Source: Microcystis aeruginosa NIES-2549
GTDB lineage: Bacteria > Cyanobacteriota > Cyanobacteriia > Cyanobacteriales > Microcystaceae
Reading direction: 5' to 3'
NCBI RefSeq assembly: GCF_000981785.2
Contig: NZ_CP011304.1
Coordinates: 3,240,001 to 3,272,000, forward strand
DNA: 32,000 nucleotides
The notes below the pieces were generated by a model, which was not told the origin of the DNA, searched no databases, and saw nothing but the letters and a program-made list of their open reading frames with translations. The position numbers and the translations under genes are program-made. Of the stretch, positions 2,992 through 28,232 are shown in pieces. Every line of letters begins with the position of its first letter. The stretch's first letter is position 1.

Positions 2992-3002
2992 GAAAATATT
3001 GA

Positions 3003-3025
3003 GGGGTTGAACCCTGTTCAGCCCC
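3003..3025 (+). terminator. Possible intrinsic terminator after the VKOR gene
   Basis: GGGGTTGAAC-CCT-GTTCAGCCCC forms a 10-bp stem (one G-U pair) with a 3-nt loop, followed by GACATTTTAT. The T-tract is weak. Confidence 0.4.
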
Positions 3026-3100
3026 GACATTTTATGGTGTTTGTTCTCTAGATGAAGTATAACTTTAATTTTGTTCTTAGCAATAGAGGGAGATTGAAAG

Positions 3101-4285
3101 TTGCCAGATTTTGATCAACCTATACCCCAAGAAAAACTTGACATTATTGAGAAAACTAGAGCCAATTTATTTGTTTGGCGAGGTCAGTTTTCACCCCAAC
3201 TGATAGAGACTATTTTAAGTTTCTATTGCCCATCTAATTCGGTCATTCTCGATCCTTTTGTGGGTAGCGGAACTGTTTTACTAGAGGCAAGTTATTTATC
3301 CCTAGAAGCTTATGGATTTGAGATTAATCCCGCTGCTTATATCATGAGTCATACCTATGAATTTATCAATGATTCTCAAAAAAAAGAAGTTCTTAAAAAC
3401 CTGAGAAATATCGTCGATCAAGAATTTCCTTTGAGAATTTTTGAAGTCAGTGATCAAGTAGAAAATTTAGTAGATAAATTGCAAAATACTAGGAATATGC
3501 TACCGGATCGGTCAAAGGTTTTATTTGATGCTTTGGTAATCCTTCTTGATGTGTGTAACAATAAAATTACTCAGGAATTTATTCAGAAAAAATTTTTACA
3601 TCTTAGTAATATAATTACTAAGCTACCTTACTCTCAAAAGCCGATCAGGGTTGGATTATCTGATGCTCGTTCTCTACCACTAAAAAATAATCAGATAGAT
3701 TTTGTTGTGACTTCTCCACCCTATATAAATGTTTTTAATTACCATCAAAATTATCGTCAATCTGCTGAAATCTTAGGATGGGATTTACTCAAGATAGCCA
3801 AGTCAGAAATTGGCTCTAATAGAGCAAATAGGAGTAATCGTTTCTACACTGTAGTACAATACTGTTTAGATATGGGTGACATTTTAAAGGAACTGGCAAG
3901 AGTCACCAAGCAGCAAGCAAGAATTGTTTTAATTGTAGGACAAGAATCTAACGTTCTTGGCGTACCTTTTTATAATGCTGATATTATTGAAAAAATAGGT
4001 GTCAAAACCAAGCTATTCCAGAAAGTATTAAGACAAAAAAGAAAATTTAAGAATAAATTTGGTAAAGTTATTATAGAGGATATAATTAATTTTATTAACT
4101 TAAATAATCAAGTTAGCCAAGAGGTAATAGAACAAATTTCTAGAGAGGTAGCATTCGAGGTATTGGAAAGCAGTAGGCTGTTTGTATCTTCAGAAAACCA
4201 GCTATGTTTAGAATCAGCAATTGCCAAAGTCAATAATATTCAAAAAACACCAATTTTAGATAAGAGATTATATATTGACCTTTGA
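3101..4285 (+). CDS. DNA amino-methyltransferase (N4-cytosine or N6-adenine), SPPY catalytic motif
   Basis: AdoMet motif I VILDPFVGSGTVLLEA is at aa 48-63 and catalytic motif IV VVTSPPYINVFNY is at aa 202-214 (SPPY = nt 3713-3724). Motif I precedes motif IV by ~150 aa. The TTG start at 3101 is preceded by GAGGGAG. Confidence 0.8.
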   Translation: MPDFDQPIPQEKLDIIEKTRANLFVWRGQFSPQLIETILSFYCPSNSVILDPFVGSGTVLLEASYLSLEAYGFEINPAAYIMSHTYEFINDSQKKEVLKNLRNIVDQEFPLRIFEVSDQVENLVDKLQNTRNMLPDRSKVLFDALVILLDVCNNKITQEFIQKKFLHLSNIITKLPYSQKPIRVGLSDARSLPLKNNQIDFVVTSPPYINVFNYHQNYRQSAEILGWDLLKIAKSEIGSNRANRSNRFYTVVQYCLDMGDILKELARVTKQQARIVLIVGQESNVLGVPFYNADIIEKIGVKTKLFQKVLRQKRKFKNKFGKVIIEDIINFINLNNQVSQEVIEQISREVAFEVLESSRLFVSSENQLCLESAIAKVNNIQKTPILDKRLYIDL

Positions 4286-5213
4286 ACATCAACAAAAATA
4301 CATGAACGAATTTTCCCGTCCTCACTACACGAAACTAACTGCCTGTCTTAACAATCCTCGGTTGCCAGAAGCTGATCGGGAACGTTTAGAAGAAGCTATT
4401 ATAAAATATCGCCAGTGGATTATCGAGTTAGAATCGATTAATTCTAGTCAAGCAGATGCAGTAGAAAAGCTAGTGTCAGCTACTAACCGATATAAGCGTT
4501 TTATTGAACTTGACTTGATTTTTGATAGTTCAGATAACTTTTTGTATAGACAGAAGGGACAGTTAAAATTAGATAATACTATATTAGAAGAATTTTTACC
4601 GCAGCTGATTTTCCGTAGTTTACAAGGAATAGATAACTCTTTTGAATTGGGTCCACGAAATACCTTCTCTGGACTAAGTTTCCTATCCTCTCTCGGCAAT
4701 ATTGGTCAAGGTGGTCAAGCAAATATTAGAAGCAAAAATCAGGATTTTATGCTGGGTAAAAAGTTATATATAAAGTCATCTTTTGACCCAGAATTTCAAA
4801 ATTATGAATTGATTGAGTCTCATCTTGGCTATGTTTGTGCAGAGTGCAAAACCAATTTAGATAAAACTATGTTTCAGGAAGCTGTAGCCACAAGTAGAGA
4901 TTTAAAAATTGCCGTTCCTAACTCTTTATATTTTTTGATTTGCGAATTTCTTGATATGACACCAGTTTCAATAATTTCTACTCAAATTGATGATGTGTTA
5001 ATTATACGAAAAACTAAGCGTATGACCGCTAATCTTCGACAAGAGTATCGCTCCTCAAAAGCAAGACAGCTGCACAGACAGGAATATGTAGATTTTTTGG
5101 ATGCTTCTCAATATTATCCCGATGTGTTTCAAAGGATGATCGATAAAATACAAACTCATATTGATAATACAAATCCATCACTGGAAAATGTTTTATATCA
5201 AGGATATTTCTAG
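4275..5213 (+). CDS. Putative type II restriction endonuclease (PD-(D/E)xK-like)
   Basis: The gene sits between two DNA methyltransferase genes and overlaps the upstream stop by 11 nt (or starts at ATG 4302). A candidate nuclease core is D157 (KNQDFML) ... E190-C-K192 (VCAECK). I recognise no other family signature, so the call rests mainly on context. Confidence 0.5.
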   Translation: MTFEHQQKYMNEFSRPHYTKLTACLNNPRLPEADRERLEEAIIKYRQWIIELESINSSQADAVEKLVSATNRYKRFIELDLIFDSSDNFLYRQKGQLKLDNTILEEFLPQLIFRSLQGIDNSFELGPRNTFSGLSFLSSLGNIGQGGQANIRSKNQDFMLGKKLYIKSSFDPEFQNYELIESHLGYVCAECKTNLDKTMFQEAVATSRDLKIAVPNSLYFLICEFLDMTPVSIISTQIDDVLIIRKTKRMTANLRQEYRSSKARQLHRQEYVDFLDASQYYPDVFQRMIDKIQTHIDNTNPSLENVLYQGYF

Positions 5214-5224
5214 AAATTTTCTCG

Positions 5225-5254
5225 ACATCAAGTTTAGCTACTTTGATGTATAAT
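5225..5254 (+). promoter_or_regulatory. Near-palindromic operator-like site abutting a TATAAT -10 box upstream of the C5-methyltransferase gene
   Basis: ACATCAAGT-TTAGCTA-CTTTGATGT (5225-5249) has arms ACATCAA/TTGATGT. It is immediately followed by and overlaps TATAAT (5249-5254), 26-32 nt upstream of the candidate starts. Confidence 0.35.
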
Positions 5255-5279
5255 AGAGAGGTAGATAAGTTGTTAATTA

Positions 5280-6524
5280 TTGGTTATGACTCAGGTAAAT
5301 CTACAAAAAGCCGCTAATATTCTCGGTGTAACTACCGCAGAAATACTAACATGGCAAAAGAAAAAATTAATCAAAGGTCAGAAAATTAATCAAGTTGATT
5401 GGTTATTTGATCTCGAGCAATTAACCAATCTTAAAAATAACCAATCCCCTGGAGAATTGAGAATTTTACAAACTGTTGAGCCAACTAATTACACAGTTAT
5501 TGAATTATTTGCTGGCTGTGGTGGTATGGCTTTAGGTTTAGAAAATGCGGGACTAAAAACGCAATTACTGGTGGAAATTAATCAAGATTGTGTTAATACT
5601 TTAAGACTCAATCGACCGCAATGGAATGTTATAAATCAAGACATAAAAAAGATTAAATTTTCTGATTTTAGAGACAAAATAGATGTTGTAGCTGGAGGTT
5701 TTCCCTGCCAACCTTTTAGTTATGCTGGGTTAGGAAAAGGATTAGAAGACTTGAGAGGGAGCCTATTTTTTGAGTTTGCTCGTTGTTTACAGGAAGTGCA
5801 ACCTAAAATCGCTATGGCCGAAAATGTTCGAGGATTATTAAGCAATAAAAAAGGAGAAACCTTGCAATTAATGCTGGAAGCTTTACAGGAAATCGGTTAT
5901 TATGCTGCTTATCAAGTTTTATCGGCTCAATTTCTCGATGTTCCCCAAAAAAGAGAAAGATTAATTATTATCGCCACCCGTCAAGACCTAAATATTAAAC
6001 CCATTTTTCCCCAATATAAAAACTATACTATTTCTCTGAAAAAAGCCTTAGAGAATTGTCCAACTTCTCCAGGAGTAGAATATAAAGAAAGAAAAAAAGA
6101 GATTATGTCCTTAGTTCCCGCAGGAGGAAATTGGCGGGATTTGCCGATGGATATTCAAAAAGAATATATGAAAAATAGTCTCAAAAATCACGGCGGACGG
6201 ACAGGATATGCTAAAAGATTATCTTGGGATGAACCAGCTTTAACTATTACCTGTAGTCCGGCACAAACCCAAACAGAAAGATGTCATCCCCAAGAAACTC
6301 GTCCTTTGACTGTGAGAGAATATGCACGAGTGCAGTCCTTTCCCGATGATTGGCGATTTACCGGTAATTTAACCTCTCAATATCGACAGATTGGTAATGC
6401 GGTTCCCGTGAATATGGCCTATCATCTTGGTGGCTGTTTAATTAATATGTTGCAAGGGGATTATCTGGGGGAAACACAGCCAAAAACCGAACAGTTAAGC
6501 ATTCCGGGGTTAGAAGTTAATTAA
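5280..6524 (+). CDS. DNA (cytosine-5)-methyltransferase with an N-terminal helix-turn-helix extension
   Basis: The m5C motifs are I ELFAGCGGMALG, IV GGFPCQPFS, VI ENVRGL, VIII QKRERLIIIA and X QIGNAVPV. The N-terminal ~45 aa (LQKAANILGVTTAEILTWQKKKLIKG) look like a MerR/excisionase-type HTH. The start is TTG 5280 or ATG 5286. Confidence 0.9.
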   Translation: MVMTQVNLQKAANILGVTTAEILTWQKKKLIKGQKINQVDWLFDLEQLTNLKNNQSPGELRILQTVEPTNYTVIELFAGCGGMALGLENAGLKTQLLVEINQDCVNTLRLNRPQWNVINQDIKKIKFSDFRDKIDVVAGGFPCQPFSYAGLGKGLEDLRGSLFFEFARCLQEVQPKIAMAENVRGLLSNKKGETLQLMLEALQEIGYYAAYQVLSAQFLDVPQKRERLIIIATRQDLNIKPIFPQYKNYTISLKKALENCPTSPGVEYKERKKEIMSLVPAGGNWRDLPMDIQKEYMKNSLKNHGGRTGYAKRLSWDEPALTITCSPAQTQTERCHPQETRPLTVREYARVQSFPDDWRFTGNLTSQYRQIGNAVPVNMAYHLGGCLINMLQGDYLGETQPKTEQLSIPGLEVN

Positions 6525-6606
6525 TTTTGACTAAAAGTAAATAGCACTTGCTGAATAAATGTGAAATGTAGGCAAGGTAAGGGTTTTAGGGATCGTCGCC
6601 CGTACT

Positions 6607-6628
6607 TTTTCAGCAAACCCTAACTATT
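6607..6628. repeat. Left arm of a 22-bp imperfect inverted repeat bounding the vapBC cassette
   Basis: TTTTCAGCAAACCCTAACTATT matches the reverse complement of 7536-7557 (CTTTCGGCAAACCCTAACTATT) at 20 of 22 positions. Confidence 0.8.
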
Positions 6629-6720
6629 CATAACTACTGACACGCAAAAACTATTGATTTAGGATAACAAAGACAATTATAATACTTTTGAATCACCGAT
6701 AACTGTTTCAGTTTTATTGT
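6621..6720. repeat. 100-bp direct repeat, copy 1 (duplicate of the vapB promoter/5' region)
   Basis: It aligns base-for-base with 7341-7440 at an offset of exactly 720 bp with 6 mismatches (6634, 6637, 6674, 6704, 6708, 6715). It contains a decapitated antitoxin start, ATG AAT AGT TAG, on the minus strand. Confidence 0.9.
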
Positions 6721-7133
6721 TAGATGGTATAGGGAATCTCAATAAATGGATGTTGATTGAGATCAAAATCTTGGGTATTACGAGTGACTAATTTGAGATT
6801 ATAGTAAAGGGCGATTGCTGCTTGAATGGCATCAGGCAATTTCCATTGAATAACCTTTTTGTTAGGCTGTTTGGTTGCCTTTTTTTTGATTTGTTCACGA
6901 CGGATTTGAATGACTAAATCAGTGATGTTGACATCTAAATCTATCAGGGGAAAATGGCTTAACAACTCTCCTGCTTTTTCAAAGGAATTATCATCATCAA
7001 AACCAATGAGAACTTCGGCTTTAGTAATGACAGAAATATAACTTTCATCTCGGTGAGCTTTTAGATAAACTGTAGCTTGGGTAATACCATTAAAATGGTC
7101 GATTAAAATACAGGAGTCTATTAATCGTTTCAT
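6720..7133 (-). CDS. vapC: PIN-domain toxin (VapC-type ribonuclease)
   Basis: The conserved acidic positions of PIN domains are present: LIDSCILID (D8), ITKAEVL (E), LPDAIQAA (D) and RNTQDF (D). The ATG at 7133 overlaps the antitoxin stop as ATGA. The track start at 7139 is an upstream GTG. Confidence 0.85.
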   Translation of the reverse strand: MKRLIDSCILIDHFNGITQATVYLKAHRDESYISVITKAEVLIGFDDDNSFEKAGELLSHFPLIDLDVNITDLVIQIRREQIKKKATKQPNKKVIQWKLPDAIQAAIALYYNLKLVTRNTQDFDLNQHPFIEIPYTI

Positions 7134-7351
7134 ATCCACTCCTCCCGAATTTTTTGCTGATATTCTAAGCCATCTCCTTTAGTCCAGATTGCCTGGGTTT
7201 TATCTAATAAAGCTTCAAAATCGGCTTCTGTCTTTTCATCCTCAACTACTTGAATGTTAATGGCTAACTTTGTTCCTGCTTTAAAGGGTAAGTTAGAGAG
7301 GATAATCTTCTGAGAATGATCGATGGTTAAATAGGTTTGATAACTATTCAT
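7130..7351 (-). CDS. vapB: Antitoxin partner of the PIN toxin (VapB-type)
   Basis: This small ORF lies immediately upstream of the PIN gene with a 4-bp ATGA overlap. The likely start is ATG at 7351 (MNSYQTYLTIDHS...), and the track start at 7363 is an upstream GTG. The family call rests on context. Confidence 0.6.
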   Translation of the reverse strand: MNSYQTYLTIDHSQKIILSNLPFKAGTKLAINIQVVEDEKTEADFEALLDKTQAIWTKGDGLEYQQKIREEWI

Positions 7352-7440
7352 AATTATTGACACGCAAAAACTATTGATTTAGGATAACAAAGATAATTAT
7401 AATACTTTTGAATCACCGATAACCGTTGCAGTTTCATTGT
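7341..7440. repeat. 100-bp direct repeat, copy 2 (functional vapBC 5' region; contains TATAAT on the minus strand)
   Basis: It is 94/100 identical to 6621-6720. The minus strand reads ...GTATTATAATTATC... about 45 nt upstream of the antitoxin ATG. Confidence 0.9.
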
Positions 7441-7535
7441 TCTTAATAAAACTTAATATACTTCAATTTTCTCAAAAAAATCGACTGGCCTTTACAGGAC
7501 TCGGATTAATGGGACTTCGCAAGAAACGTTAATCC

Positions 7536-7557
7536 AATAGTTAGGGTTTGCCGAAAG
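7536..7557. repeat. Right arm of the 22-bp inverted repeat bounding the vapBC cassette
   Basis: AATAGTTAGGGTTTGCCGAAAG is the reverse complement of 6607-6628 at 20 of 22 positions. Confidence 0.8.
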
Positions 7558-7583
7558 AAGCTAGATACAATTGAGTAACGCAC

Positions 7584-7616
7584 AGAAAACGGGTTTCTCG
7601 GAGAAACCCGTTTTCT
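7584..7616. repeat. Palindromic hairpin element, copy 1 (AGAAAACGGGTTTCT-loop-AGAAACCCGTTTTCT)
   Basis: A perfect 15-bp (or longer) stem. The same stem recurs at 22313, 23376 and 23862 with different loop bases. Confidence 0.9.
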
Positions 7617-7713
7617 ACTCATGCACTCATGCAAAAAGGGGAATAAATAATCAGTCTTTAATAACCAGATTTAGTATAACTACTTCTTGCATGAGTTCCT
7701 ATCCTCAGCCAGA

Positions 7714-14329: not shown

Positions 14330-14948
14330 AACTTTATCTTTCTCCAATGGCGGCTGACGGGTGCGATCGCGGCTCAAGTTCTCCAATCGCACCTTTATTT
14401 CTATTTTCTGACTTTTGGCCGCTCTGAGCAGGTTTTAGGACAGTCCATCTCTAAAGAAAATATAAAACTGTGGGATGATTCAGGGAACAGGAGGTAGCAG
14501 CGAGATTCTATCATCGATTTGAAAAAAGCTCTAAATCCTGTTTAAAAGGTATAGAAAATGGCGTTGCTGAATCAAGATATGAATACTAATTGTACATCCT
14601 ATCCACAAGTTAGCTTAGTCCTAGGTTTGGAACAGTACCTAAAGGACAATTGATACCAAATCCGACTTATAAAACCCAGTTATGAATTAGTTATATTGAA
14701 GCCAACTATGATTGATAGGATAGGATGAGTTTTTAATTTTTCTCCTTATTTGTTGGTATTCAAAGAGAAGTGATCGTAAAGATTTCCAACTTAGTAAATT
14801 TACGAAGAGGAAATGCACACGATAATATCCCTTAAACATAGGAATTTGAGGTACTTTTGACTGTGGTTAATCAAGCGGATTTTATATCAGAAAGAGCAAA
14901 GGAATATAACTCTGATAGAGCAAGCTGTCTAGCTACATCGTCACTCAG

Positions 14949-16808
14949 TCAGCTTGAAAGCTCTTTATCAAAAATCTCAATAATATTAGGCATTGTATCA
15001 AATTTTTCAAAGACAATAATGTCACATGGCTCGCCATTTCTATCTTTATTAGAACGAGCATTCTCATCTAAATATTCATAAAATGTAGGTCTGTCAATGA
15101 TGTCACTTCCATAGCCAATAATAATCATCTTGAGTTCATCCTGACTATTCAGCCTTTTACAGGTTTCATGAACCAACTTCTCAAAATCATTTTTATCATT
15201 TAATTCGCCGTCAGTGTATATGATAATAAATCCACCTTGATCAGGATCTCGAGTCAGAAACCAGTCATCAATGATGGTTCTCAGCGTAGGGACAATAAAA
15301 GTATTACCATCTGGCTGATTTTCCTTAAAAAGACCAGCTACTTGTGAATCGTCTTGTATCTGTGTTACTACACGAGCAAAATTTGGACTAAAGAAAGCAA
15401 CTGTGATCTCATGGCAAATTTTTTCTTGGTCCATTCCTTCCTGATGCAGAATTCTGTAAATATGACCTTGGATTAGTTCTCGCAGTGCAATCCATCGTCT
15501 TTCATTCGCTAACTTAGGATCTCTTTCGGCCATAGATCCACTTTGATCAATTAACATATAAACCTTACGATTATAAATTTTAACACTAGGCATACTAGAC
15601 CTCCTTAGTCCATTTAATTGGTGTTTAATTTCAAGAATCCATTGTTGATTGAACACTTCTTGATAAATCGGATTAGCGGGAAACAGAAATGTTTTTGATT
15701 GCAAAATCAATCCAGACATTAATAAATCCCATTGTAGCATACTCTCACTATCAAACTTAATCTTATTAGGATTACGGAGAATACGATGATATAAGTTGAG
15801 TGTTGGTAGAACACTGTTAGAATCATTATGGCTATTCCCTAAGCTAACAAAGTAATCATGAATTTGTTGAAAGTGGGAGTTCAAGGAAGGCAACCTTTCA
15901 GGCTTAAGAAAATAACATCTAAACAAGTTTTCAATCTGAGGGAGAATCTCTGAATCTTCTAGTATTATATTCTGATCATGGATGATTTTACATAAAATTT
16001 GTGTTAAGAACGGTTGACCTTGAGTCCAATCAATTATAGTTTCCGCAAGCGAAGAAGGATGATTTTTCAAGACCTTCTTGAGCGGCCCACACTGGCTACG
16101 GTGAAAAGGAGAGATTTCAATAATGGATGCTTGTGTCAATAAACTCTGACAGTCATCTTGAAAAAAATTTAAATGGTTAACGCACCCTGCTAAAATAAAT
16201 TTAATATAAGGCAAGAAACTTTGATGATTTTCTGACAATAATTTCAGAAAGTTTTTTAAATATTCGTAAAATTCTTCATCCATCACATTTTCAAGGTTAT
16301 CCAGAAAAATAATAATAGTTTTATCGGTAATTTTAAGGATTTCTTGTAAAGAGTTAATAAATTTTAGTTCAAAGCTATTTTCTTGGGTATTTTGCCATAT
16401 CTGATTTAAAAGATTGAGTAGTTGGTGATCTTTGTCATCAAGTTTACTGTAGATTATTGTAATGATTTCTAAATAAAATGAACGTTCTGATAAGTTTTTT
16501 GAAAAGTTTTTAAAGGCAATTCCTCCCCATTTATATTTTAGCGAAGAAAAGTGTTTTTTCATTCGGAAAACCAAGCTTGTTTTGCCCACTTTAGGGGGAG
16601 CAAATAGACAACAAAAGGCTGAATGATCTTGACTATTCTGGAGAAACTTAAAGAGTTGTTCATCTGCTTGACGAGTAATATAAGTAGGATCATTAGGGAG
16701 TAAGATTTGACCAGGAAGATTAGGATAAGAATTTTCAGTAAATTTCTTGAAGTTATTCCATATATCTTGAATAAGCGAAGCTCCAGAATTAAATTGTATT
16801 TCTTCCAT
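14949..16808 (-). CDS. STAND/AAA-like P-loop NTPase fused to a C-terminal von Willebrand factor A (vWA) domain
   Basis: Walker A is LFAPPKVGKTSL (aa 68-79) and Walker B is IIIFLDNLE (aa 165-173). A STAND-type GxP motif WTQGQPFLTQ is at aa 261-270. The vWA MIDAS motif is complete: D421-Q-S-G-S425, G-N-T503 and T-D533-G. A GAGGAG Shine-Dalgarno sequence overlaps the end of the upstream gene. Confidence 0.75.
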   Translation of the reverse strand: MEEIQFNSGASLIQDIWNNFKKFTENSYPNLPGQILLPNDPTYITRQADEQLFKFLQNSQDHSAFCCLFAPPKVGKTSLVFRMKKHFSSLKYKWGGIAFKNFSKNLSERSFYLEIITIIYSKLDDKDHQLLNLLNQIWQNTQENSFELKFINSLQEILKITDKTIIIFLDNLENVMDEEFYEYLKNFLKLLSENHQSFLPYIKFILAGCVNHLNFFQDDCQSLLTQASIIEISPFHRSQCGPLKKVLKNHPSSLAETIIDWTQGQPFLTQILCKIIHDQNIILEDSEILPQIENLFRCYFLKPERLPSLNSHFQQIHDYFVSLGNSHNDSNSVLPTLNLYHRILRNPNKIKFDSESMLQWDLLMSGLILQSKTFLFPANPIYQEVFNQQWILEIKHQLNGLRRSSMPSVKIYNRKVYMLIDQSGSMAERDPKLANERRWIALRELIQGHIYRILHQEGMDQEKICHEITVAFFSPNFARVVTQIQDDSQVAGLFKENQPDGNTFIVPTLRTIIDDWFLTRDPDQGGFIIIYTDGELNDKNDFEKLVHETCKRLNSQDELKMIIIGYGSDIIDRPTFYEYLDENARSNKDRNGEPCDIIVFEKFDTMPNIIEIFDKELSS

Positions 16809-16815
16809 TGTTTAC

Positions 16816-17754
16816 TCACTCCTCTGGTTTTTCAAGATTTTGTTTTTGGTTAGACTCAGAATTGTTAGTATTTTTAGATGCAGAGAAAAGTGATTGAAAA
16901 AAATCTTGCCAAGTTTCTAGTACAGTAGTAAATAAATCAATGGGGAGTAGAATTAACTTATTCAAATCAATTTCTGAAGATTTTTGGTTGATGCTTTGAA
17001 CTTCCTCCCAGTGATCCTGATCAACTAATTCAGATAAACTTCGCCATCCACCAGCGTCTTCTAGGGTTTTTCTTTTTTTAGAGCCAGTAACGATTACTAA
17101 AATATCATAGTCAGAAGGTAAGTAACATCGACCAATTTCTTCAGATAGTTCATTTTTCATCTGAGGCACATTTTTACCAATTTTTTTGATTAATTCTGGG
17201 GCTTCACCAGTAGGAATTGTGTAAAAACTTTCTGGGAAAACTAACTGGTATAACTCTTCAAAACGGGGATAAAACCCATATTGATTATTTTGAATATCGT
17301 CGGATAATTGAGTGTCAATATCTTTTAAAAAAAGAACGGCTCTGTCAATTTTTTCCGCTAAAGATTCTTGATTTTCCTCTTTTAAAGTGAAAGCGGCCAT
17401 TTGACGAAAGCCAAAATCAGTTTTCTCATTATCTTCTGCAAGCCATACTACATCAACTGTGATCTGACGGGGTTCAGAATCTTGACGAGGAATTTTTTTA
17501 GGTTGCATTTGGCTTGTTATACTATCAAATGACTCTTGAATTTTGTAAGGCTCAATTCCCGTTATCATTAAAAGAAGTTGGTTTGTTGGTAATCTTTCTA
17601 AGACGAGAGAGGGAGAATCTTGTGCAATTAAATTGGTCGCTGTTGAAGATAACGGTGGAATTCGAGTATTAATCTTCCCGTCCTGACTAACTTCTAGCCA
17701 ACGGTAGTCTTGTTCAGGTTGATAATACCCGCGACTTTGAACATAAATCTTCAT
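16816..17754 (-). CDS. Hypothetical protein, 312 aa, no recognisable motif (third gene of the NTPase/vWA operon)
   Basis: This long ORF is preceded by a strong SD (TAAATAGAGGAGGTAATC-ATG) 11 nt after the upstream stop, and its own stop is 7 nt before the next start. The C-terminal tail is low-complexity (SKNTNNSESNQKQNLEKPEE). Confidence 0.6.
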   Translation of the reverse strand: MKIYVQSRGYYQPEQDYRWLEVSQDGKINTRIPPLSSTATNLIAQDSPSLVLERLPTNQLLLMITGIEPYKIQESFDSITSQMQPKKIPRQDSEPRQITVDVVWLAEDNEKTDFGFRQMAAFTLKEENQESLAEKIDRAVLFLKDIDTQLSDDIQNNQYGFYPRFEELYQLVFPESFYTIPTGEAPELIKKIGKNVPQMKNELSEEIGRCYLPSDYDILVIVTGSKKRKTLEDAGGWRSLSELVDQDHWEEVQSINQKSSEIDLNKLILLPIDLFTTVLETWQDFFQSLFSASKNTNNSESNQKQNLEKPEE

Positions 17755-17765
17755 GATTACCTCCT

Positions 17766-18863
17766 CTATTTAGGTCTTTTTAAAAAGAGTAGTGGATGAC
17801 CCTGTATGATCGTGAAACCGTCTATATTTTCTTTGCGGCTTTGAGCAAAGGTTTTAACTGCTTGGCCAAAAGGAGTTTCATCTCCACCAAACAATTCACG
17901 AATTGTTCTCAATATGGGAGAACGTTCAACTAATAATTGATCATTACAAATCTTGAATAAAAAACTCAGAAGATAGCGAAGTAATTGATCTCCATTTTCG
18001 GGTTTATAACGAGCGTCTATACTCGTTTTACGAAACCAAAATCGAGGTTTATTACCATCTTCTACTTCATATTTCCAAAAATGCAAACATCCAACTGTTT
18101 GAACTGGGGCTGTAATGACTGCTATGTTCTCAGAGCGGCCTTGCAAAAAGGCTAGTAAAGGCTCATATTTTTCCTGAATATGAGCTATCAGTTTTTGACT
18201 AGGTTGTTTTTCTTGTACATAGTAGTTGCCGTCTTTGTCTTCGATTTTTTGTACATAGGTTTCGCATTTAACAGGAGCTAAAATAACTAGCTTAGGGTTT
18301 CTAGGGTTGGCACAAGCGGCTTTTAATAATTCAAGGACTTCTTTAGGTTGGTTTCTTGATTGATGCCATTTTCCACTGTCATTAGATATATCCCAATCTT
18401 TACGGTTTTGAAAATTTTCTCTTTTGGGTTCTAACATAGCGGGTGTATCAATGGTGACGATCACTCCATAGGACTCTTGAATTAACTTTTTAACAAATTC
18501 CCTTTCCATCTTATCTTTTGAAGTCAGATATCCCCCTGGATAATCTCTAAAAATAAGCCTTATTTTACTATTCTTATAAACTAAATCAAAAACATATTTC
18601 GGTAAAGAATCAGGACCAGCAATTGCCTTTGTACCTTGGAGTCCTTTATCTCGCTCATCTGCTCTCATTTGATTTTGTAAACTTTTTAATTGTTCCAAGT
18701 ATTTATCCAGAATTTTTTTAGTTTCTTCATCAGGAATTAATTTAAAATCAATATCTTTGGCAATACGTTCCAACTTTTCATACATCGCCAACAGAAGCGT
18801 TGTTTTGCCTACACCACTTGCTCCTAACATCGTAATTTGAAATTCGTTTCCTTTTGGGTTCAT
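17766..18863 (-). CDS. P-loop GTPase-like protein (TRAFAC-type G1/G3 motifs)
   Basis: G1 is MLGASGVGKTTLL (aa 12-24) and G3-like is FRDYPGG (aa 105-111), with a ~85-aa coiled/helical insert between them. A possible G4-like APVKCE is at aa 196-201. An AAGGA SD lies ~12 nt upstream of the ATG. Confidence 0.65.
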   Translation of the reverse strand: MNPKGNEFQITMLGASGVGKTTLLLAMYEKLERIAKDIDFKLIPDEETKKILDKYLEQLKSLQNQMRADERDKGLQGTKAIAGPDSLPKYVFDLVYKNSKIRLIFRDYPGGYLTSKDKMEREFVKKLIQESYGVIVTIDTPAMLEPKRENFQNRKDWDISNDSGKWHQSRNQPKEVLELLKAACANPRNPKLVILAPVKCETYVQKIEDKDGNYYVQEKQPSQKLIAHIQEKYEPLLAFLQGRSENIAVITAPVQTVGCLHFWKYEVEDGNKPRFWFRKTSIDARYKPENGDQLLRYLLSFLFKICNDQLLVERSPILRTIRELFGGDETPFGQAVKTFAQSRKENIDGFTIIQGHPLLFLKRPK

Positions 18864-18900
18864 AAGAATGAGTTCCTTGTAAAGTTAAGTTTGACGATAA

Positions 18901-20970
18901 TTAATTGACAAATTGTAATGCTTGCAGTTGATTGACTTGAGCAACTTGTTCAACTGCATTGAGCCACTGTTGACGATGATTTTGTTCGGTATCTCCTCCA
19001 AATTCTTCTGGCCAAATATAAAATTTTTGATCATACTGGAAAATCTCCCATGCTTTTCTGACACCTTCTGAACGAGTAATTTGATCAACAAATTCTTCAA
19101 TTTCGATCAAGATTTCTTTTCCAGGCTTAGAAGATATTTTCGAAGGTAATTCAACTTCACAATGAAAAATCACTTCGCCATGAATGATTTCTAAATTATG
19201 TTGAATTTCTTCCGCTTTTTTTTGCTTAATTTCTGGGGTATCTTCGTTCCCGCCTGGTATTTTGGTTAACTCCATATTAGTTTTATTAGGATTAAAATTG
19301 TCTAGGTAATCTCTGACTACGGAACGAATATGATTTCGATAAGTCATCTCAAAATTAGCCAAGGCTTCAAGAGGTTGTTTCAGAGGTTTTAAAGAGTCAT
19401 CATCTGGGATAATTTCTACTAATTTTTTCAAGAATTGAGATCCTTGAAGATTAACTAACTGAGGAATATTCCCTAAATTAAGAGACTCTCTTAAACTTTG
19501 ACTTACTTTTTCTTTCGCTTCTTCTACTTTTCTGCTCATTCCATTTTCCATTGAAGTAAAATTACGAGTTAAATGAGTACGAACATCATGTAAGTAATTA
19601 GAATAAGTTATCTTCCAATCTTTTTTTTGTTTTATGTACCCTACTAAAATTTGTTCAATATCAGGAATTCCTGTATCATTTTTACAGTTTTCAATAACGG
19701 AAATTACTTCTTGCCTAAAATTATTTTCATCTTCATTTTTTTCTGAGTTTAAATTATCCACCAATCTATCAAGATTATATGTAATAGCAAACCAAGAATT
19801 TTCGTATAAACTAGACATTTTATGCTGTTCATTGACATATGACTTAGATAAACCAGTAGTCCAATCTTGTCGAGCTTTTGCTAATTCTTGGGCCACTCTC
19901 TGTTGAAGTTTATTCAATTCCTCTTGATAAGTTCTAACGTATTTTTCATCTAACGAAGTAATGTTATCTATCATATAGTCTAAAACTAGATCAAGAACAC
20001 GATTAGCTTCGTTAGAATCATTGCAATTAGCAATTTCACATCTCACAACATCAATGTGTTTGCTTTGAATAGTGTCCTTGTGATCCTGACAACCTTCTAG
20101 ATTACTATTATCATAGTTAAGAATCATAAAAGAACGCCTATTCAAAGAATCTAAAGCTTGATAGGCTGTTTTATATAAATCTGTATCTCTCGGTTCCCAT
20201 CCATAACGTTTGTCGTCACGATCAGGACGACGAATAAAAAGAACTATATCAACTTCTTGTCCTAAAGTTTTGAACATTAAATCCTCATCTCCCAGTCGAG
20301 TATCGCCTAAACCCGGAACATCAACCAAGGCAATCTGTTGTACATCTTGATTGGGAAAAGGACAAGAAATTTTCACGGAATTGACCGCTAAATGATCGAA
20401 AAAAATCAATTTTTTTTTCTCATCTCTTGGTTGAGAAACATATTTATAGATTTCAGATTTAGGAACACTCGATAAGATTTTAGGTGAGCCTGTTTGTAAG
20501 TGAGGTTTGTATGATTGTAAATGGTCATGATAATCATCTTTTAAGTGTCCATAAATGCTTTTTAAAGTCGCATTGCCCTGTTCGTAAGAAAAGTCAGGAA
20601 CAGGGAGAGGTTTTTCAAAATCTTCAATCGTCCGGGGAGGAGTCAGTTTTAAGGCTTTATAATAAGGAGTAATGACAGTTGTCAAAAAGGATTCTTGTGT
20701 GTGAAAAGTCACCTCACCTTCGGTTTCTCCTTCCTTATACTCAATCTTACTCTTACACGCTGTACAAGCTGCTCCTTCTTTTGCTGGAATTACATCATTG
20801 CCCAATCCACTAATCCTTTGTAAAAAAGTGCTTTTTCCTTGACCCATTAAGCCAACAACACCAATATTGATCGTTCCTCGTTGATAGCGATTCATTAGAT
20901 CAGTTAAACGATTTATTTGATGGGAAATGTTAACAGATATATCTGCCAAGTTAACCTGACAGGGGGACAA
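18901..20970 (-). CDS. Dynamin-like GTPase, major (C-terminal 681-aa) portion of a gene split by a MITE
   Basis: G1 is GLMGQGKSTFLQRISG (aa 40-55). The dynamin-type G3 is ALVDVPGLGD (aa 214-223). A long helical stalk-like C-terminal half follows. The first 8 codons, including the TTG start at 20970, are encoded by the MITE inverted repeat and the target-site duplication. Confidence 0.7.
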   Translation of the reverse strand: MSPCQVNLADISVNISHQINRLTDLMNRYQRGTINIGVVGLMGQGKSTFLQRISGLGNDVIPAKEGAACTACKSKIEYKEGETEGEVTFHTQESFLTTVITPYYKALKLTPPRTIEDFEKPLPVPDFSYEQGNATLKSIYGHLKDDYHDHLQSYKPHLQTGSPKILSSVPKSEIYKYVSQPRDEKKKLIFFDHLAVNSVKISCPFPNQDVQQIALVDVPGLGDTRLGDEDLMFKTLGQEVDIVLFIRRPDRDDKRYGWEPRDTDLYKTAYQALDSLNRRSFMILNYDNSNLEGCQDHKDTIQSKHIDVVRCEIANCNDSNEANRVLDLVLDYMIDNITSLDEKYVRTYQEELNKLQQRVAQELAKARQDWTTGLSKSYVNEQHKMSSLYENSWFAITYNLDRLVDNLNSEKNEDENNFRQEVISVIENCKNDTGIPDIEQILVGYIKQKKDWKITYSNYLHDVRTHLTRNFTSMENGMSRKVEEAKEKVSQSLRESLNLGNIPQLVNLQGSQFLKKLVEIIPDDDSLKPLKQPLEALANFEMTYRNHIRSVVRDYLDNFNPNKTNMELTKIPGGNEDTPEIKQKKAEEIQHNLEIIHGEVIFHCEVELPSKISSKPGKEILIEIEEFVDQITRSEGVRKAWEIFQYDQKFYIWPEEFGGDTEQNHRQQWLNAVEQVAQVNQLQALQFVN

Positions 20971-21187
20971 GACCTCTCAAAGCATTGTCCACAAAGGTTT
21001 TGAGGCTCCTCAGTTACAAACAGATACATCGCTTTCAGCCAAAAAGCTAACGAAATAATCAGGGATTTGGGCGAGCTTACTAGAAATATTTATCAACAAC
21101 GGGGGGTGAGCTGCATCGAACTTTTTCGCTCCAACACCCCAAAAAGCTTGTGATGTAAGGAGTTCAGCCAGCTTGTCCCCCTGTCAG
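20956..21187. mobile_element. 232-bp non-autonomous element (MITE) with 16-bp perfect terminal inverted repeats and a 9-bp target-site duplication
   Basis: The TIRs are CTGACAGGGGGACAAG (20956-20971) and CTTGTCCCCCTGTCAG (21172-21187). They are flanked by the direct repeat CAAGTTAAC at 20947-20955 and 21188-21196. There is no ORF inside. Confidence 0.85.
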
Positions 21188-21376
21188 CAAGTTAACAGTT
21201 CTTAAGAAATCAATTACTGCGGCTTCCTTTGATTCTCCCATCAGTCTAACTCTGAGACTTTCGAGCGTGTCTATATTTCCTTTAAGGGTTGTTAAGTTGT
21301 TATTGACTTGTTTAATCTTAGAAACGAGAGGTTCTCTTTTTTGGACAATTTGTTGAATCTTGGTGCGTCTTGACAT
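21164..21376 (-). pseudogene. N-terminal 63 codons of the dynamin-like GTPase gene, severed by the MITE (the last 7 codons and the stop are read from the element)
   Basis: MSRRTKIQQIVQKREPLVSKIKQVNNNLTTLKGNIDTLESLRVRLMGESKEAAVIDFLRTVNL is coiled-coil-like. It then runs into the TIR as LTGGQAG*. The codons GTT AAC TTG of the TSD are in frame in both fragments. Confidence 0.75.
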
Positions 21377-21468
21377 GGTGATATTCTCAGTACAGGATAA
21401 AAAGCTTAAAAAGTAGATAAGAGTAGGATTTTCTAAGAAATAGAACTGATCTCAAAAACCCCCACAAG

Positions 21469-21672
21469 TCAGTATAGCGAATTAAAGCAAGCTCTTAAAC
21501 CCCATTTGGTATGGCAGGTCGCCAGACTCTCATTTTTGACCTTGGTAAATTGTTGTAATTTGCCAGAAATTAACAGCATTGCCTGTTGTAGCGCAGGAAT
21601 AATATCTGAATCGAGGGGTAACGCAGATTCTAGGGTTACGTTGGTTGTGAGGTTGTAAAGGGTATTAGGCAT
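21469..21672 (-). CDS. Hypothetical small protein (67 aa), doubtful
   Basis: An ORF only. I recognise no motif and no clear SD. Confidence 0.25.
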   Translation of the reverse strand: MPNTLYNLTTNVTLESALPLDSDIIPALQQAMLLISGKLQQFTKVKNESLATCHTKWGLRACFNSLY

Positions 21673-22312
21673 GGGATGAACTGGGGATAAAAAAGAGAAT
21701 TAAACAGGATTCAGCGATATTTTGGTGGCAAAATCGATAAATTTGCACAACAATATCCCAAATATCCCAATGGACAACAAAGCCAATCGAGAGATTAGGA
21801 GAATAATTGGTTAGGGAATATCAAATTGATCTAAAAACTCATCCGCGAGTCTAGCATAAGCTACCTAGCTATGTCAAGAAGTTTTCTGTAATTTCACAGA
21901 AACTTTAGAAAAATTTAAGTAATTACCCCGTGTGCAACTATATTTTTAGTCTTGATTTACAAGGCTTTCAGAAATCAGCAGAGATAAAGTATCCTCTGTA
22001 ACCCTGATTCTGTCGTTTTTAGTTGCACATCGCGTGCAATTATTCCTTCTATGTCCTGGGTTATAACTTTTGAGATTGTCTGGGCTGCTACCGGTAAGGC
22101 GATGTTTATATTGTTAAGTTGTGTTAATAGCTTAATTTCTATGGTTTTCATAGTCTAAAAACAATGGTTATCCTCTTGTGTGAATAGGAGGAAAATCTAA
22201 GCTGGTATCTCCAATTCAGTCGCTCATAACTAGACAAGAGAAACTGTAGCGATTAATAAGTGCCTAAGCAAAATTAATTACACATTTAAGCCGCTACTCT
22301 GTCACTAAACAC

Positions 22313-22345
22313 AGAAAACGGGTTTCTTGAAGAAACCCGTTTTTT
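22313..22345. repeat. Palindromic hairpin element, copy 2 (terminator-like: followed by a T-run on the + strand)
   Basis: AGAAAACGGGTTTCTTGAAGAAACCCGTTTTTTT lies 18 nt downstream of the Rpn-family gene stop. Confidence 0.9.
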
Positions 22346-22362
22346 TGGGCGACAAACCAGAA

Positions 22363-23316
22363 TTATTCAGGTTGGATTAACTGATTTAAATAGCCTTGAA
22401 AATCTGAGATTGAGTCAAGAGTAATCGCTTGTCTGTGGAGATTTTTTAGAAGAGAAGTGTCTTGAATTTGGCTAATCTTATTAACCAGTTCAGAAGGCAC
22501 ATTCTCAAACCGAATCTCAAGGGCATCAATGACAGATTCTCGAGCTTTTTGAATCATCCCTTTTTCCATTCCCATTCTTTCAACACTGGTAATATAAGGC
22601 ATTCTTTTTTCCTCCTCGTACTGATTTAATTCCTGTTGAAACTCCTGTTCTAATTCAGCGGGTAAGCTCATCAGCCAATCGATAAACTTAAAGAGGTTGA
22701 GAATATCCTCTCGTTGATAACCCTGTTCGTACAACCGTTTAGTTAATGTTAGTTTCGCTTCCTTGCGCTTTTTTCGGTTTTGCCGAGTTTCTAAAGCTTG
22801 GAGATGCGCCATCACGACTGTAGCAAAAGGGTTACGGCTGGCTGCTAAAGCTGACCACTGCTGCTTAAATTCTAGCAACTTGACGACCGGAAAGCGAAAA
22901 CTCACTTGACAATCAAATAACTCACGCTCAAATTGATTGGGTCGCCAAGAAGCATTATCATCACCTAAAACTGCCAAACTCGCTACTGAACGCCTGTAAC
23001 GATCATAAATGCGATAGTAATAGACAAACATCCGTTCAGCAAAGTCAATTTCTCGCTGACCCTGGATTTCTATGTGGATTAAAACCCAGGTCTCTTCTCC
23101 CGCCATACGATAAATTTTCACCAACTTATCGACGAGACGTTTGCCTAACTCAGCATCGCGCACCACTTGTTGAAGTTCTTTGTCGAGAAATTCAAAGCCT
23201 TGATTCCAATCAATACCCGCGTGAGCTTGAGGAAAAAAGAAGGAAACAAAGTCTTCAAAGTAGATTTCTAAGACATCTTTCCAAGGAGTATCAAAATCAG
23301 TATTTGGGTTATTCAT
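22363..23316 (-). CDS. Rpn-family recombination-promoting nuclease / putative transposase (PD-(D/E)XK) with a DUF4351-like C-terminal domain
   Basis: MNNPNTDFDTPWKDVLEIYFEDFVSFFFP...DKLVKIYRMAGEETWVLIHIEIQGQRE...MFVYYYRIYDRY is typical of the abundant cyanobacterial Rpn/PDDEXK family. The start is set to M33 (ATG 23316). The 32-codon track extension translates the hairpin element. Confidence 0.8.
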   Translation of the reverse strand: MNNPNTDFDTPWKDVLEIYFEDFVSFFFPQAHAGIDWNQGFEFLDKELQQVVRDAELGKRLVDKLVKIYRMAGEETWVLIHIEIQGQREIDFAERMFVYYYRIYDRYRRSVASLAVLGDDNASWRPNQFERELFDCQVSFRFPVVKLLEFKQQWSALAASRNPFATVVMAHLQALETRQNRKKRKEAKLTLTKRLYEQGYQREDILNLFKFIDWLMSLPAELEQEFQQELNQYEEEKRMPYITSVERMGMEKGMIQKARESVIDALEIRFENVPSELVNKISQIQDTSLLKNLHRQAITLDSISDFQGYLNQLIQPE

Positions 23317-23375
23317 TTCAGTTATCAGTTCTCTTGAACCACCGAAGTAATTTTTGTGATATACTGTACTTACGC

Positions 23376-23408
23376 AGAAAACGGGTTTCTTTGAGAAACC
23401 CGTTTTCT
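23376..23408. repeat. Palindromic hairpin element, copy 3
   Basis: AGAAAACGGGTTTCTTTGAGAAACCCGTTTTCT lies between the truncated and the intact Rpn-family genes. Confidence 0.9.
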
Positions 23409-23434
23409 CCAAAAGGCGATCGCTAACGGAAGAG

Positions 23435-23806
23435 CTAATCTGTTAAAGTATTTAACCAATTGATTAAATCTTCAACCGCAGAGAAGTCGAATAAAGCTTC
23501 TCCTAATGCTTCGACATCATCAATACTTAACTGCATAATTTTAGTTTCTAATGCAGGATTAATCTCCCCTAACTTGCGTTTAAGTTGACGAAGAATCAAT
23601 GTCTTTTCGCGTTCGATACCTTGTTCGATACCTTGACGCATCCAACTGGTAGTAATTTGCATAACTCCCTCCTGTACGGGTTGACTAAATGTGCTAATCT
23701 CTTCTTGGAATTGTATCTCTTCCACTGGATTAAGATTGAGATATGTATCAATAAATCCAGAAATTAATTGCATTCTCGCCGCATCTAACCTTAAAGTAAT
23801 TAACAA
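23435..23806 (-). pseudogene. 5'-truncated paralogue of the Rpn-family gene (C-terminal DUF4351-like part only)
   Basis: The 123-aa ORF (FIDTYLNLNPVEEIQFQEEI...ITTSWMRQGIEQGIE...LRQLKRKLGEI...LSIDDVEALGEALFDF) parallels the C-terminal half of 22363..23316 (FIDWLMSLPAELEQEFQQEL...ITSVERMGMEKGM...). No nuclease core lies upstream. Only ~55 nt separate it from hairpin copy 4. Confidence 0.65.
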
Positions 23807-23861
23807 GCGCAGACATTCCGCCTTAACCTTAGCTCGCTCTTTGTCTGCAATAGGGTGATCC

Positions 23862-23894
23862 AGAAAACGGGTTTCTTCAAGAAACCCGTTTTCT
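23862..23894. repeat. Palindromic hairpin element, copy 4
   Basis: AGAAAACGGGTTTCTTCAAGAAACCCGTTTTCT. Confidence 0.9.
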
Positions 23895-23901
23895 ATTCAA
23901 T

Positions 23902-23978
23902 CTCCTGACTCCTGACTCCTAACTCCTGACTCCTAACTCCTAACTACTGATAACTGATAACTGATAACTGATAACTGA
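23902..23978. repeat. Two adjacent heptanucleotide tandem arrays: (CTCCTRA)x6 then (CTGATAA)x4.5
   Basis: CTCCTGA CTCCTGA CTCCTAA CTCCTGA CTCCTAA CTCCTAA spans 23902-23943. CTGATAA x4 plus CTGA spans 23947-23978, ending 10 nt from the MFS gene stop. Confidence 0.95.
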
Positions 23979-28113: not shown

Positions 28114-28232
28114 TTTCAGTTGCGGGGTTAATCAAGGAGCAAATTTAACGGTTATCGGTGTATTAGCCATGGTTAATACAATTCACCTTCATCTAGTATT
28201 CTAGCAAAATTTGTCCCCTTGTCAGTAAAATT

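Follow-up and report, generated by a model that had tools for sequence, protein, structure and literature searches.

The 32,000-nucleotide stretch of the Microcystis aeruginosa NIES-2549 genome analyzed here (hereafter, the window) carries four co-oriented genes on its minus strand at positions 14949-21376. In order of transcription these encode a dynamin-like GTPase (g1), a small GTPase of the DO-GTPase2 family (g2), a 312-residue protein (g3), and an AAA_35 NTPase joined to a vWA domain (g4). The conserved unit is not this tetrad but the triad of dynamin-like GTPase, DO-GTPase2 protein, and g3. Comparative analysis suggests an accessory conflict module that moves horizontally, is centred on NTPases, and probably acts in anti-phage defense or abortive infection, a reading to which we assign a probability of roughly 0.58. 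As far as the literature consulted and PADLOC v2 extend, the triad has been neither described nor tested previously. The Microcystis version is a derived sub-type in which g3 lacks a membrane anchor and the STAND-like AAA_35-vWA gene g4 has been gained.

The open reading frames (ORFs) and a direct reading of the DNA bear out the compact four-gene minus-strand operon proposed in an initial annotation of this DNA. The intergenic gaps are 37, 11, and 7 nt, and Shine-Dalgarno-like sequences (AAGGA, GAGGAGG, and GAGGAG) precede the starts of the downstream genes g2, g3, and g4. All of the motifs which that annotation quoted for g1, g2, and g4 are present in the translations, and its four domain assignments hold: Pfam gives Dynamin_N for g1, DO-GTPase2 for g2, AAA_35 plus a weak VWA match for g4, and nothing for g3. 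The deposited records are AKE65629/MYAER_3291 for g2 and AKE65627 for g4 (exact-sequence match).

Conservation of the g1-g2-g3 triad

In 30 loci found with g3 as the seed, g1, g2, and g3 follow one another in this order on one strand wherever the flank suffices. These loci come from 26 GTDB genomes, nearly all cyanobacterial by name with two labeled only 'uncultured bacterium', plus metagenome contigs. A metagenome scan seeded with g2 gave 20 loci, in 19 of which g1 lies directly upstream (the exception is a fragment), and g3 lies directly downstream in all 16 loci that have room for it. The triad is also present on three genome contigs, those of Scytonema hofmannii PCC 7110, Anabaena cylindrica, and a Leptolyngbyaceae genome. 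Nonomuraea gerenzanensis, an actinomycete, has it too, as does a conjugative plasmid from Aulosira laxa. The purpose-built hidden Markov models were trained on the first loci, so that E-values obtained there are circular; loci L031-L033 and L048-L072 lie outside the training set. Homologues of all four genes recur in the same order in dozens of loci that are independent of one another, which is far beyond chance. The co-occurrence of all four genes elsewhere, on which the original proposal depended, was also found, although the conserved core comprises only three of them: of the 20 loci found with g2, a single one, which is Microcystis-like, has AAA_35 plus vWA alongside the triad.

In the plasmid collection, ten records carry relatives of g1; one of them (Nonomuraea, 11.85 Mb) is probably a chromosome. 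Decayed copies occur in Trichodesmium (L024) and Okeania (L018), and paralogous duplications are seen within loci L001 and L067.

Some loci depart from this layout. In four Symploca/Caldora loci (L005, L006, L007, and L027) the operon is split by 2-8 kb between the dynamin gene and g2; the inserts hold opposite-strand ORFs of ~330-580 residues and may be insertion sequence elements. Three plasmid loci (L070-L072) carry more distant g1-like dynamins with other partners. In one of these, Stanieria cyanosphaera pSTA7437.02 (L070), the partners are a divergent 389-residue protein with weak DO-GTPase1/2 similarity followed by 992- and 473-residue proteins without Pfam matches, and an NB-ARC gene stands alongside the set. 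A g1-like plasmid copy in Pseudanabaena is split and lies amid toxin-antitoxin genes.

Gene 2 is a small GTPase of the DO-GTPase2 family

The g2 protein has the P-loop GASGVGKT (K20) and a Walker B/G3 motif, FRDYPGG. It had been annotated as a GTPase-like P-loop protein; the GTPase assignment stands, and the protein need no longer be anonymous because 24 of 25 family members match DO-GTPase2 (PF19993; best E = 1.8e-12), six of them matching DO-GTPase1 as well. The window protein itself scores slightly below the 27-bit cut-off of the DO-GTPase2 model (25.9 bits, E = 9e-6), and its homologues from Nonomuraea and Aulosira reach 43 and 36 bits, respectively. Through this family the locus is connected with the GTPase-centric conflict systems (PMC7159879). 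An AlphaFold (AF2) model with a predicted template modeling score (pTM) of 0.84 shows a generic TRAFAC GTPase fold with insertions, and a fold search with the model returned generic TRAFAC GTPases only. Comparison with PDB sequences likewise gave only P-loop-level matches.

The P-loop begins at residue 14, and there is no cysteine-rich extension or zinc ribbon. Across the family D107-[YF]-P109-G110 is invariant and is followed by G, S, E, or A; the nearest invariant glutamate is E145, within a D139-x-P-A-x-x-E motif. A profile search recovered at least 401 clusters, and the named sources among the 120 listed are all cyanobacterial. No g2 homologues were found in phage genomes. We also considered whether the GTPase domain of g1 and g2 might be close paralogues (a 'double GTPase') and rejected this, hhalign giving a probability of 48% over 23 P-loop columns only.

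Gene 1 is a dynamin-like GTPase interrupted by a transposable element

Pfam Dynamin_N matches g1 with E = 1.6e-11 (45 bits against a cut-off of 27). The protein has the G1 motif GLMGQGKS (K101) and the G3 motif DVPG, and the corresponding GxxGxGKS and DxPG signatures are invariant across its relatives. The helical C-terminal half (g1C, ~410 residues) is conserved as a separate module. A profile search with this stalk (A4) in a word-indexed database retrieved only four proteins and is inadequate as a census of N-terminal fusions. The best matches among PDB sequences, IRG/IIGP1 (E = 3e-3, P-loop region only) and the Nostoc bacterial dynamin-like protein (BDLP; E = 0.09), are both weak. Hydropathy analysis detected no transmembrane (TM) segment or hydrophobic paddle in g1 (maximum KD19 = 0.99), and none of the four window proteins contains a stretch that spans the membrane or is strongly hydrophobic.

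In NIES-2549 the dynamin motifs of g1 are as first annotated, but the frame is not intact, the gene being split by a 232-bp miniature inverted-repeat transposable element (MITE). The element has 16-bp terminal inverted repeats (CTGACAGGGGGACAAG) and is bounded by a 9-bp target duplication (GTTAACTTG) at 21188-21196 and 20947-20955. The frame opening with the ATG at 21376 ends within the MITE after 70 codons (21376-21164), the g1 stop codon lies at 18901, and the longest ORF past the element starts at a TTG (20970) and encodes 689 residues. Excision in silico of the MITE plus one copy of the duplication restores a single ORF, and empty-site alleles in two Microcystis metagenome contigs (L042 and L043) are uninterrupted and encode 743 residues. 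With its first 63 codons cut off from the remainder by the MITE, g1 is probably disabled or truncated and the NIES-2549 system disabled or attenuated. BLAST detected no second full copy of the MITE in the window. A copy of its terminal repeat with two mismatches (CTGACAAGGGGACAAA) lies far from the element at 28210-28225.

Gene 3 is a widespread domain that is usually anchored in the membrane

Searches of Pfam, NCBIfam, and PADLOC gave no match to g3. When 15 family members were compared with Pfam at E <= 10, nothing was found except an inserted helix-turn-helix (HTH) in some, and the Nonomuraea and Aulosira g3 proteins have no Pfam matches. The conserved core of ~230 residues has an invariant N-terminal QSRG together with TGxK and WRxLS. 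The structure prediction and fold search that the initial annotation had proposed yielded a confident AF2 model (predicted local distance difference test score 81, pTM 0.75) and no match in either the PDB (best E 0.08) or the BFVD viral library (0.025), with TM-scores of about 0.1. We disregarded the top PDB rows (Csm3, fluorescent proteins, and Fabs) as noise.

An exhaustive profile search placed 470 representative clusters (50% identity) in the g3 family, compared with 14 by word-indexed search. Among the best 150 of these 470 representatives, which were those inspected, 119 have a C-terminal TM helix directly after the core, and the tails beyond it are 0-281 residues long. The long-tailed members scanned include two with a WD40 propeller and one with He_PIG Ig domains; several are proline/threonine-rich by eye. 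The window protein has an amphipathic C-terminal helix in place of the TM anchor usual among its relatives. Since the TM helix is present in 26 of 29 loci without AAA_35/vWA and missing in 15 of 22 loci with it, the usual g3 probably has its conserved domain in the cytoplasm, tethered to the membrane, and in many cases carries a variable and presumably extracellular tail, whereas the Microcystis protein is a soluble derivative that has lost its anchor. That most relatives are membrane-anchored, many with a variable tail, is more in keeping with a sensor or adaptor than with an effector. The earlier suggestion that the 312-residue protein is the output of the system is thus unlikely, and it is the dynamin slot that receives HEPN and CHAT enzymes in related loci (see below).

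Several g3 variants were observed. In Okeania, Trichodesmium, and related organisms (P0005 and P0007-P0009; L003, L013-L018, L025, and L028) the protein has a ~65-residue insertion near its middle with weak similarity to Cro/CI-type HTH domains. In a metagenome locus (L067:9104-12174) g2 is followed by three tandem g3 paralogues of 293, 241, and 439 residues, and P0209 has two g3 domains in one chain without a TM segment.

Gene 4 is an accessory found in a minority of lineages

The g4 protein matches Pfam AAA_35 (7e-11) and NPHP3_N (2e-4), with weak VWA_2/VWA matches. Its motifs are APPKVGKT (Walker A, K76), FLDNLE, GQPFL, and an intact, conserved metal-ion-dependent adhesion site (MIDAS), DQSGS...T...D (D421, S423, S425, T, and D). 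Paralogues also match NACHT and nSTAND models. GK[ST] and GQPFL are conserved; our placement of AAA_35 as a STAND clade rests on these NPHP3_N, NACHT, and nSTAND cross-matches. The Walker B motif reads D170-N171 rather than the D-E of most relatives, and for this reason the NTPase may bind nucleotide and hydrolyze it poorly or not at all. Comparison with PDB sequences gave P-loop-level matches only. The name of the deposited protein, 'Hat/HatR', is a misnomer.

AAA_35/vWA proteins are frequent in loci of close relatives of the window g3 (Symploca, Caldora, Okeania, Trichodesmium, Coleofasciculaceae, and Oscillatoria princeps), and their parts are arranged in more than one way. The two domains may be fused together, or AAA_35 may be found on the N-terminus of the dynamin (giving proteins of ~1140-1180 residues) with a stand-alone vWA protein encoded downstream; some loci have an extra AAA_35 paralogue of ~450 residues upstream. 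Such alternative fusions of the Rosetta-stone type are strong evidence that the AAA_35, vWA, and dynamin parts work together. The AAA_35/vWA gene is an accessory of a minority lineage and is freely re-partitioned.

Effector domains and neighborhoods of related loci

Domains typical of conflict systems occupy or adjoin the dynamin slot in several relatives. One locus encodes a dynamin with an N-terminal HEPN_Swt1 domain (E = 2e-24). In Oscillatoria princeps RMCB-10 (L012:6832-8772, protein P0196) a caspase-like CHAT protease domain (E = 1e-12) replaces the GTPase domain on the g1 stalk, and this gene is followed by g2, g3, and a stand-alone vWA gene. At another locus a TIR-AAA_35 protein adjoins. 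Such domains, lying within the dynamin slot or next to it, argue for a conflict system.

A 160-kb ENA scaffold (L001:695-15732) has two tandem paralogous copies, one of which lacks the dynamin; copy B encodes the HEPN_Swt1-dynamin and two g2 paralogues. Directly after these copies lies a pair consisting of a PARIS-like AriA (AAA_15/21) and a DUF4435 protein. Defense genes thus figure among the neighbors of some loci; those in L004 encode SbcCD/UvrD-PDDEXK/HNH/AAA_13 proteins, and PADLOC matches in the flanks of related loci include AriA, NsnB, LmuB, and mad3.

The operon lies on a strain-variable genomic island

The operon belongs to an accessory island that was horizontally acquired (Table 1). 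Assembly GCA_009811875.1 of another M. aeruginosa strain (L034) lacks the island and has 217 bp in its stead, with ilvD on one side and the MFS/recO genes on the other. Loci L035-L041 have other cargo beside ilvD at the same site; in several of these strains the cargo is a gene for a giant He_PIG/Big_9/HemolysinCabind protein plus one for a 251-residue protein. The AT-rich, HIP1-free character noted at the outset was confirmed: GC content is 35.7% over 14490-23959 and 43.0% in the remaining window, and none of the 13 HIP1 sites in the window falls within 14371-23415, leaving the operon HIP1-free.

Table 1 Coordinates of the features of the operon and its island in the window
Feature	Position	Strand	Evidence or remark
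Strain-specific island (operon, non-coding stretch, and two Rpn-like ORFs)	14490..23959		9.47 kb, GC 35.7%
g1 5' piece, first 63 dynamin-like codons, before the MITE	21188..21376	-	Equals N-terminus of the intact L042 allele
MITE inside g1, 232 bp	20956..21187		16-bp terminal inverted repeats, 9-bp target duplication, empty site in L042/L043
g1 main part, dynamin-like GTPase and helical C-terminal half	18901..20955	-	Dynamin_N
g2, DO-GTPase2-type small TRAFAC GTPase, 365 residues	17766..18863	-	Pfam, motifs, AF2 model
g3, ~230-residue domain without fold match, 312 residues	16816..17754	-	Profile and fold searches
g4, AAA_35 (STAND-like) NTPase plus vWA, 619 residues	14949..16808	-	Pfam, motifs
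Candidate sigma-70-like promoter upstream of g1 (TTGACA, 18 nt, TGnTAGACT)	21848..21877	-	Best scan match
Island-cargo ORFs, 349 and 123 residues	22363..23806	-	Upstream of terminator-like hairpin 22315-22343

Promoter and terminator scans of the region gave no more matches than expected from shuffled sequence, and the promoter in Table 1 is for that reason a candidate only. Two small minus-strand ORFs, 21469-21672 (67 residues) and 21975-22151 (58 residues), lie between the operon start and the Rpn-like gene and have no NCBIfam match. The region of the first is kept in L042 and L043 and could be a leader or a small island gene.

The two upstream ORFs had been taken for Rpn nucleases. The 123-residue ORF matches DUF4351 (E = 4e-22). 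For the 349-residue ORF neither Pfam nor NCBIfam gave a match, and its Rpn identity is therefore not supported. Both ORFs are absent from related loci and are probably mere island cargo outside the system.

The defense-island context originally claimed is weaker than stated. The restriction-modification (R-M) and vapBC genes occupy a region of their own, 8-11 kb away and behind housekeeping genes, and the flanks of related loci are mixed. The R-M genes (N6_N4_Mtase, RE_Bpu10I, and DNA_methylase) occupy 3101-6524, at a GC content of about 34.5%. Within ~2578-7688, these genes and the PIN cassette are common to L034 and L035, and loci L036-L038 have HTH, TRM, and DUF3086 genes instead, past a shared region encoding an ABC substrate-binding protein. 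This looks like a second strain-variable region, apart from the operon island. The vapBC-like cassette consists of a PIN gene (6720-7139) and a small upstream ORF. It is flanked by a 101-bp direct repeat, 94% identical (6621-6721 and 7341-7441), and this bracketing suggests that the toxin-antitoxin pair is a small mobile or recombining cassette.

Comparison with known systems

Of the systems described so far, the nearest are the DO-GTPase/GAP1 'GTPase-centric' conflict systems (Kaur, Burroughs, Iyer & Aravind, eLife 2020; PMC7159879), especially those of the GAP1-N2 type. According to that work, GAP1 consists of three globular domains (GAP1-N1 or N2, GAP1-M, and GAP1-C) and is encoded downstream of the GTPase or fused to it. 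The DO-GTPases have a conserved glutamate in the Walker B motif and, in 60% of cases, N-terminal zinc ribbon(s); two paralogous DO-GTPases are present in 38%. An FNIII-repeat protein occurs in N2-type and a GASH protein in N1-type neighborhoods, and vWA proteins are found in some GAP1-N2 neighborhoods. The systems are said to be nearly absent from cyanobacteria and dynamin is nowhere mentioned (PMC7159879). The triad resembles these systems in having a DO-GTPase2-family TRAFAC GTPase as the conserved switch and, directly downstream, a non-enzymatic partner that is often TM-anchored with variable domains past the membrane segment. Further likenesses are a vWA protein in some neighborhoods, the swapping of effector-type domains (HEPN, CHAT, TIR, and STAND), and enrichment in filamentous or multicellular bacteria; both kinds are without experimental characterization.

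One could therefore ask whether the locus is an ordinary DO-GTPase/GAP1 member in which g3 is a divergent GAP1. The matches of the g2 family to DO-GTPase2 and in some cases DO-GTPase1, the GAP1 position of g3 directly after the GTPase gene, the TM segment and further domains at its C-terminus as in GAP1-N2, and the vWA proteins near some GAP1-N2 genes would all fit. We nonetheless regard this explanation as improbable. Apart from the inserted HTH, g3 has no detectable similarity to GAP1-N/M/C or to any other Pfam family (this comparison is at the Pfam level, and the presence of GAP1 models in the Pfam copy used is unconfirmed), and its conserved core of ~230 residues contrasts with the three globular domains of GAP1. 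The second GTPase of the triad is dynamin-like and shares only the P-loop with g2, rather than being a second DO-GTPase. Moreover, g2 lacks zinc ribbons, neither the four window proteins nor the top Pfam families from 139 flanking ORFs include an FNIII-repeat or GASH component, and the triad is concentrated in cyanobacteria. The initial annotation had recognized no described system with the same four genes, and this still holds: beyond the GTPase family, the defining parts of the closest kind are missing here.

Dynamin-family GTPases are known defense components. Eleos (LeoA/LeoBC) is a validated dynamin-like defense system reported from several phyla including cyanobacteria, and it requires its P-loop (bioRxiv 10.1101/2022.05.11.491447). 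The locus shares with Eleos and with Bacillus subtilis DynA the use of a bacterial dynamin-family GTPase, and a dynamin-like GTPase followed by a second GTPase in a cyanobacterium could be taken for a tandem-dynamin system of the Eleos/LeoABC type. This alternative is effectively refuted, because g1 and g2 gave no PADLOC match even at E = 0.1 (PADLOC is expected to hold the LeoA/LeoBC models) and because g2 is a 365-residue DO-GTPase2-type small GTPase, not a dynamin. Eleos comprises two (or three) dynamin-like proteins alone, whereas the locus adds a small switch GTPase, g3, and STAND/vWA; its third and fourth genes have no Eleos counterpart.

The MIDAS-bearing vWA and STAND-type module, together with swappable effectors, recall the MoxR-vWA ternary systems (VMAP, iSTAND; PMC7159879), as do the cyanobacterial concentration and the D-N Walker B of g4, which is reminiscent of the 'inactive STAND' proteins of those systems. 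However, the vWA domain is C-terminal on AAA_35 rather than on effectors, and the core consists of two GTPases plus g3. Pfam detected no MoxR-like AAA+ domain in the four window proteins, and since it has no MoxR the locus is not a ternary system of this kind.

Among cyanobacterial dynamin-like proteins (DLPs), Jilly et al. (2018) described an 'HSR1' clade that includes Microcystis and Trichodesmium genes, has a small GTP-binding protein encoded downstream, and was discussed in terms of thylakoid and membrane dynamics (PMC5827413). That pairing may be a glimpse of the g1-g2 pairing; Anabaena sp. 90, which has the HSR1-clade plasmid gene ANA_P10081, is not among the organisms listed for the g1/g2 plasmid matches. 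In g1, as in Nostoc punctiforme BDLP and SynDLP, a long helical region comes after the Dynamin_N GTPase domain. Unlike them g1 has no detected hydrophobic paddle, and its similarity to the Nostoc protein is marginal. Eukaryotic immune GTPases (IRG/IIGP1, Mx, and GBP) offer a further parallel in being large GTPases that act as cell-autonomous executioners, but the match of g1 is limited to the P-loop region and no evidence of a specific common ancestry was obtained.

Discussion

The anti-phage function, the division into sensor, switch, and executioner, and the order of signaling that we propose are drawn by analogy from the DO-GTPase/GAP1 and MoxR-vWA systems (PMC7159879) and from Eleos/DynA. 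On this scheme g3 would detect an invader-associated cue, assisted in the Microcystis sub-type by g4 through its vWA/MIDAS surface and nucleotide-dependent oligomerization. GTP-loaded g2 would be the switch that sets the threshold, and the dynamin-like g1 would act as executioner by GTP-dependent assembly that remodels or breaches the membrane. Alternatively, g1 might serve as a scaffold that gathers a fused enzymatic domain, such as the HEPN RNase or CHAT protease of its relatives. A more ambitious version, which we put forward only tentatively, is that the triad would be a widespread transmembrane immune-signaling device of multicellular bacteria, a prokaryotic counterpart of Mx/IRG/GBP in which the surface domain of g3 senses phage or envelope damage, the small GTPase relays the signal, and the dynamin executes the response by itself or by way of grafted HEPN or CHAT domains. 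The Microcystis type would then be cytosolic, its ectodomain having been exchanged for a STAND-vWA sensor.

Several observations count against a conflict function. No PADLOC model (v2) matches any of the four proteins significantly, in keeping with the initial statement that no named system is present, and an NCBIfam scan of the four gave nothing meaningful. No enzymatic effector is recognizable in the window version, and the HEPN and CHAT fusions each occur in one lineage only. The pooled flanks of 26 loci (139 ORFs, scanned with PADLOC and Pfam) are mixed and have no background rate with which to be compared. The three-gene form often has ordinary surroundings; in Anabaena cylindrica and Leptolyngbyaceae the neighbors are metabolic or regulatory genes. 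The mean column identity of g2 (54-58%) would fit a housekeeping role as well. To these must be added the D-N Walker B of g4, the interruption of g1 in NIES-2549, and a search of the published literature that found no experiment on any member.

Much of this could be accommodated by a non-immune module for membrane dynamics, in which a dynamin regulated by g2 and recruited by g3 remodels or repairs cytoplasmic or thylakoid membranes and AAA_35/vWA is an added regulator; envelope stress, cell-cell junctions, or filamentous differentiation could provide the setting. The true Dynamin_N domain of g1 is consistent with such a role, bacterial DLPs being membrane-remodeling enzymes (PMC5827413), and g3 is membrane-anchored in about 80% of the representatives inspected. 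The triad is common in filamentous cyanobacteria and occurs in a filamentous actinomycete. Rhomboid and TPR genes recur near the Anabaena and Leptolyngbyaceae triads, whose contexts are not defense-like, and the high conservation of g2 and lack of PADLOC matches also agree. Difficult to reconcile with this role are the strain-variable presence of the locus in Microcystis on a low-GC island whose site holds alternative cargo elsewhere, its plasmid-borne relatives and pseudogenized copies, and the HEPN, CHAT, and TIR domains fused into or beside the module. The g3 tails vary widely in length and domains, tandem g3 paralogues occur, and not one of the window proteins has a segment that spans the membrane or is strongly hydrophobic. 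We consider a membrane-dynamics module, the main alternative, unlikely, and favor the conflict module.

If the conflict reading is correct, dynamin-family GTPases would serve bacterial defense in a second way, by a different mechanism in which the dynamin is linked to a switch of the small-GTPase type and to a receptor in the membrane. The triad would also extend the DO-GTPase systems, so far without experimental test, into the cyanobacteria, which were thought to be nearly devoid of them. With three genes, clear P-loop/MIDAS mutants, and natural HEPN/CHAT variants, the triad is a tractable entry point to DO-GTPase biology. In g3 it provides a widespread domain of about 470 clusters whose structure is predicted with confidence and has no analogue among solved or viral structures. 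In Microcystis the locus belongs to a strain-variable gene pool that may shape the susceptibility of blooms to cyanophages, and the MITE in g1 illustrates how such systems are switched off.

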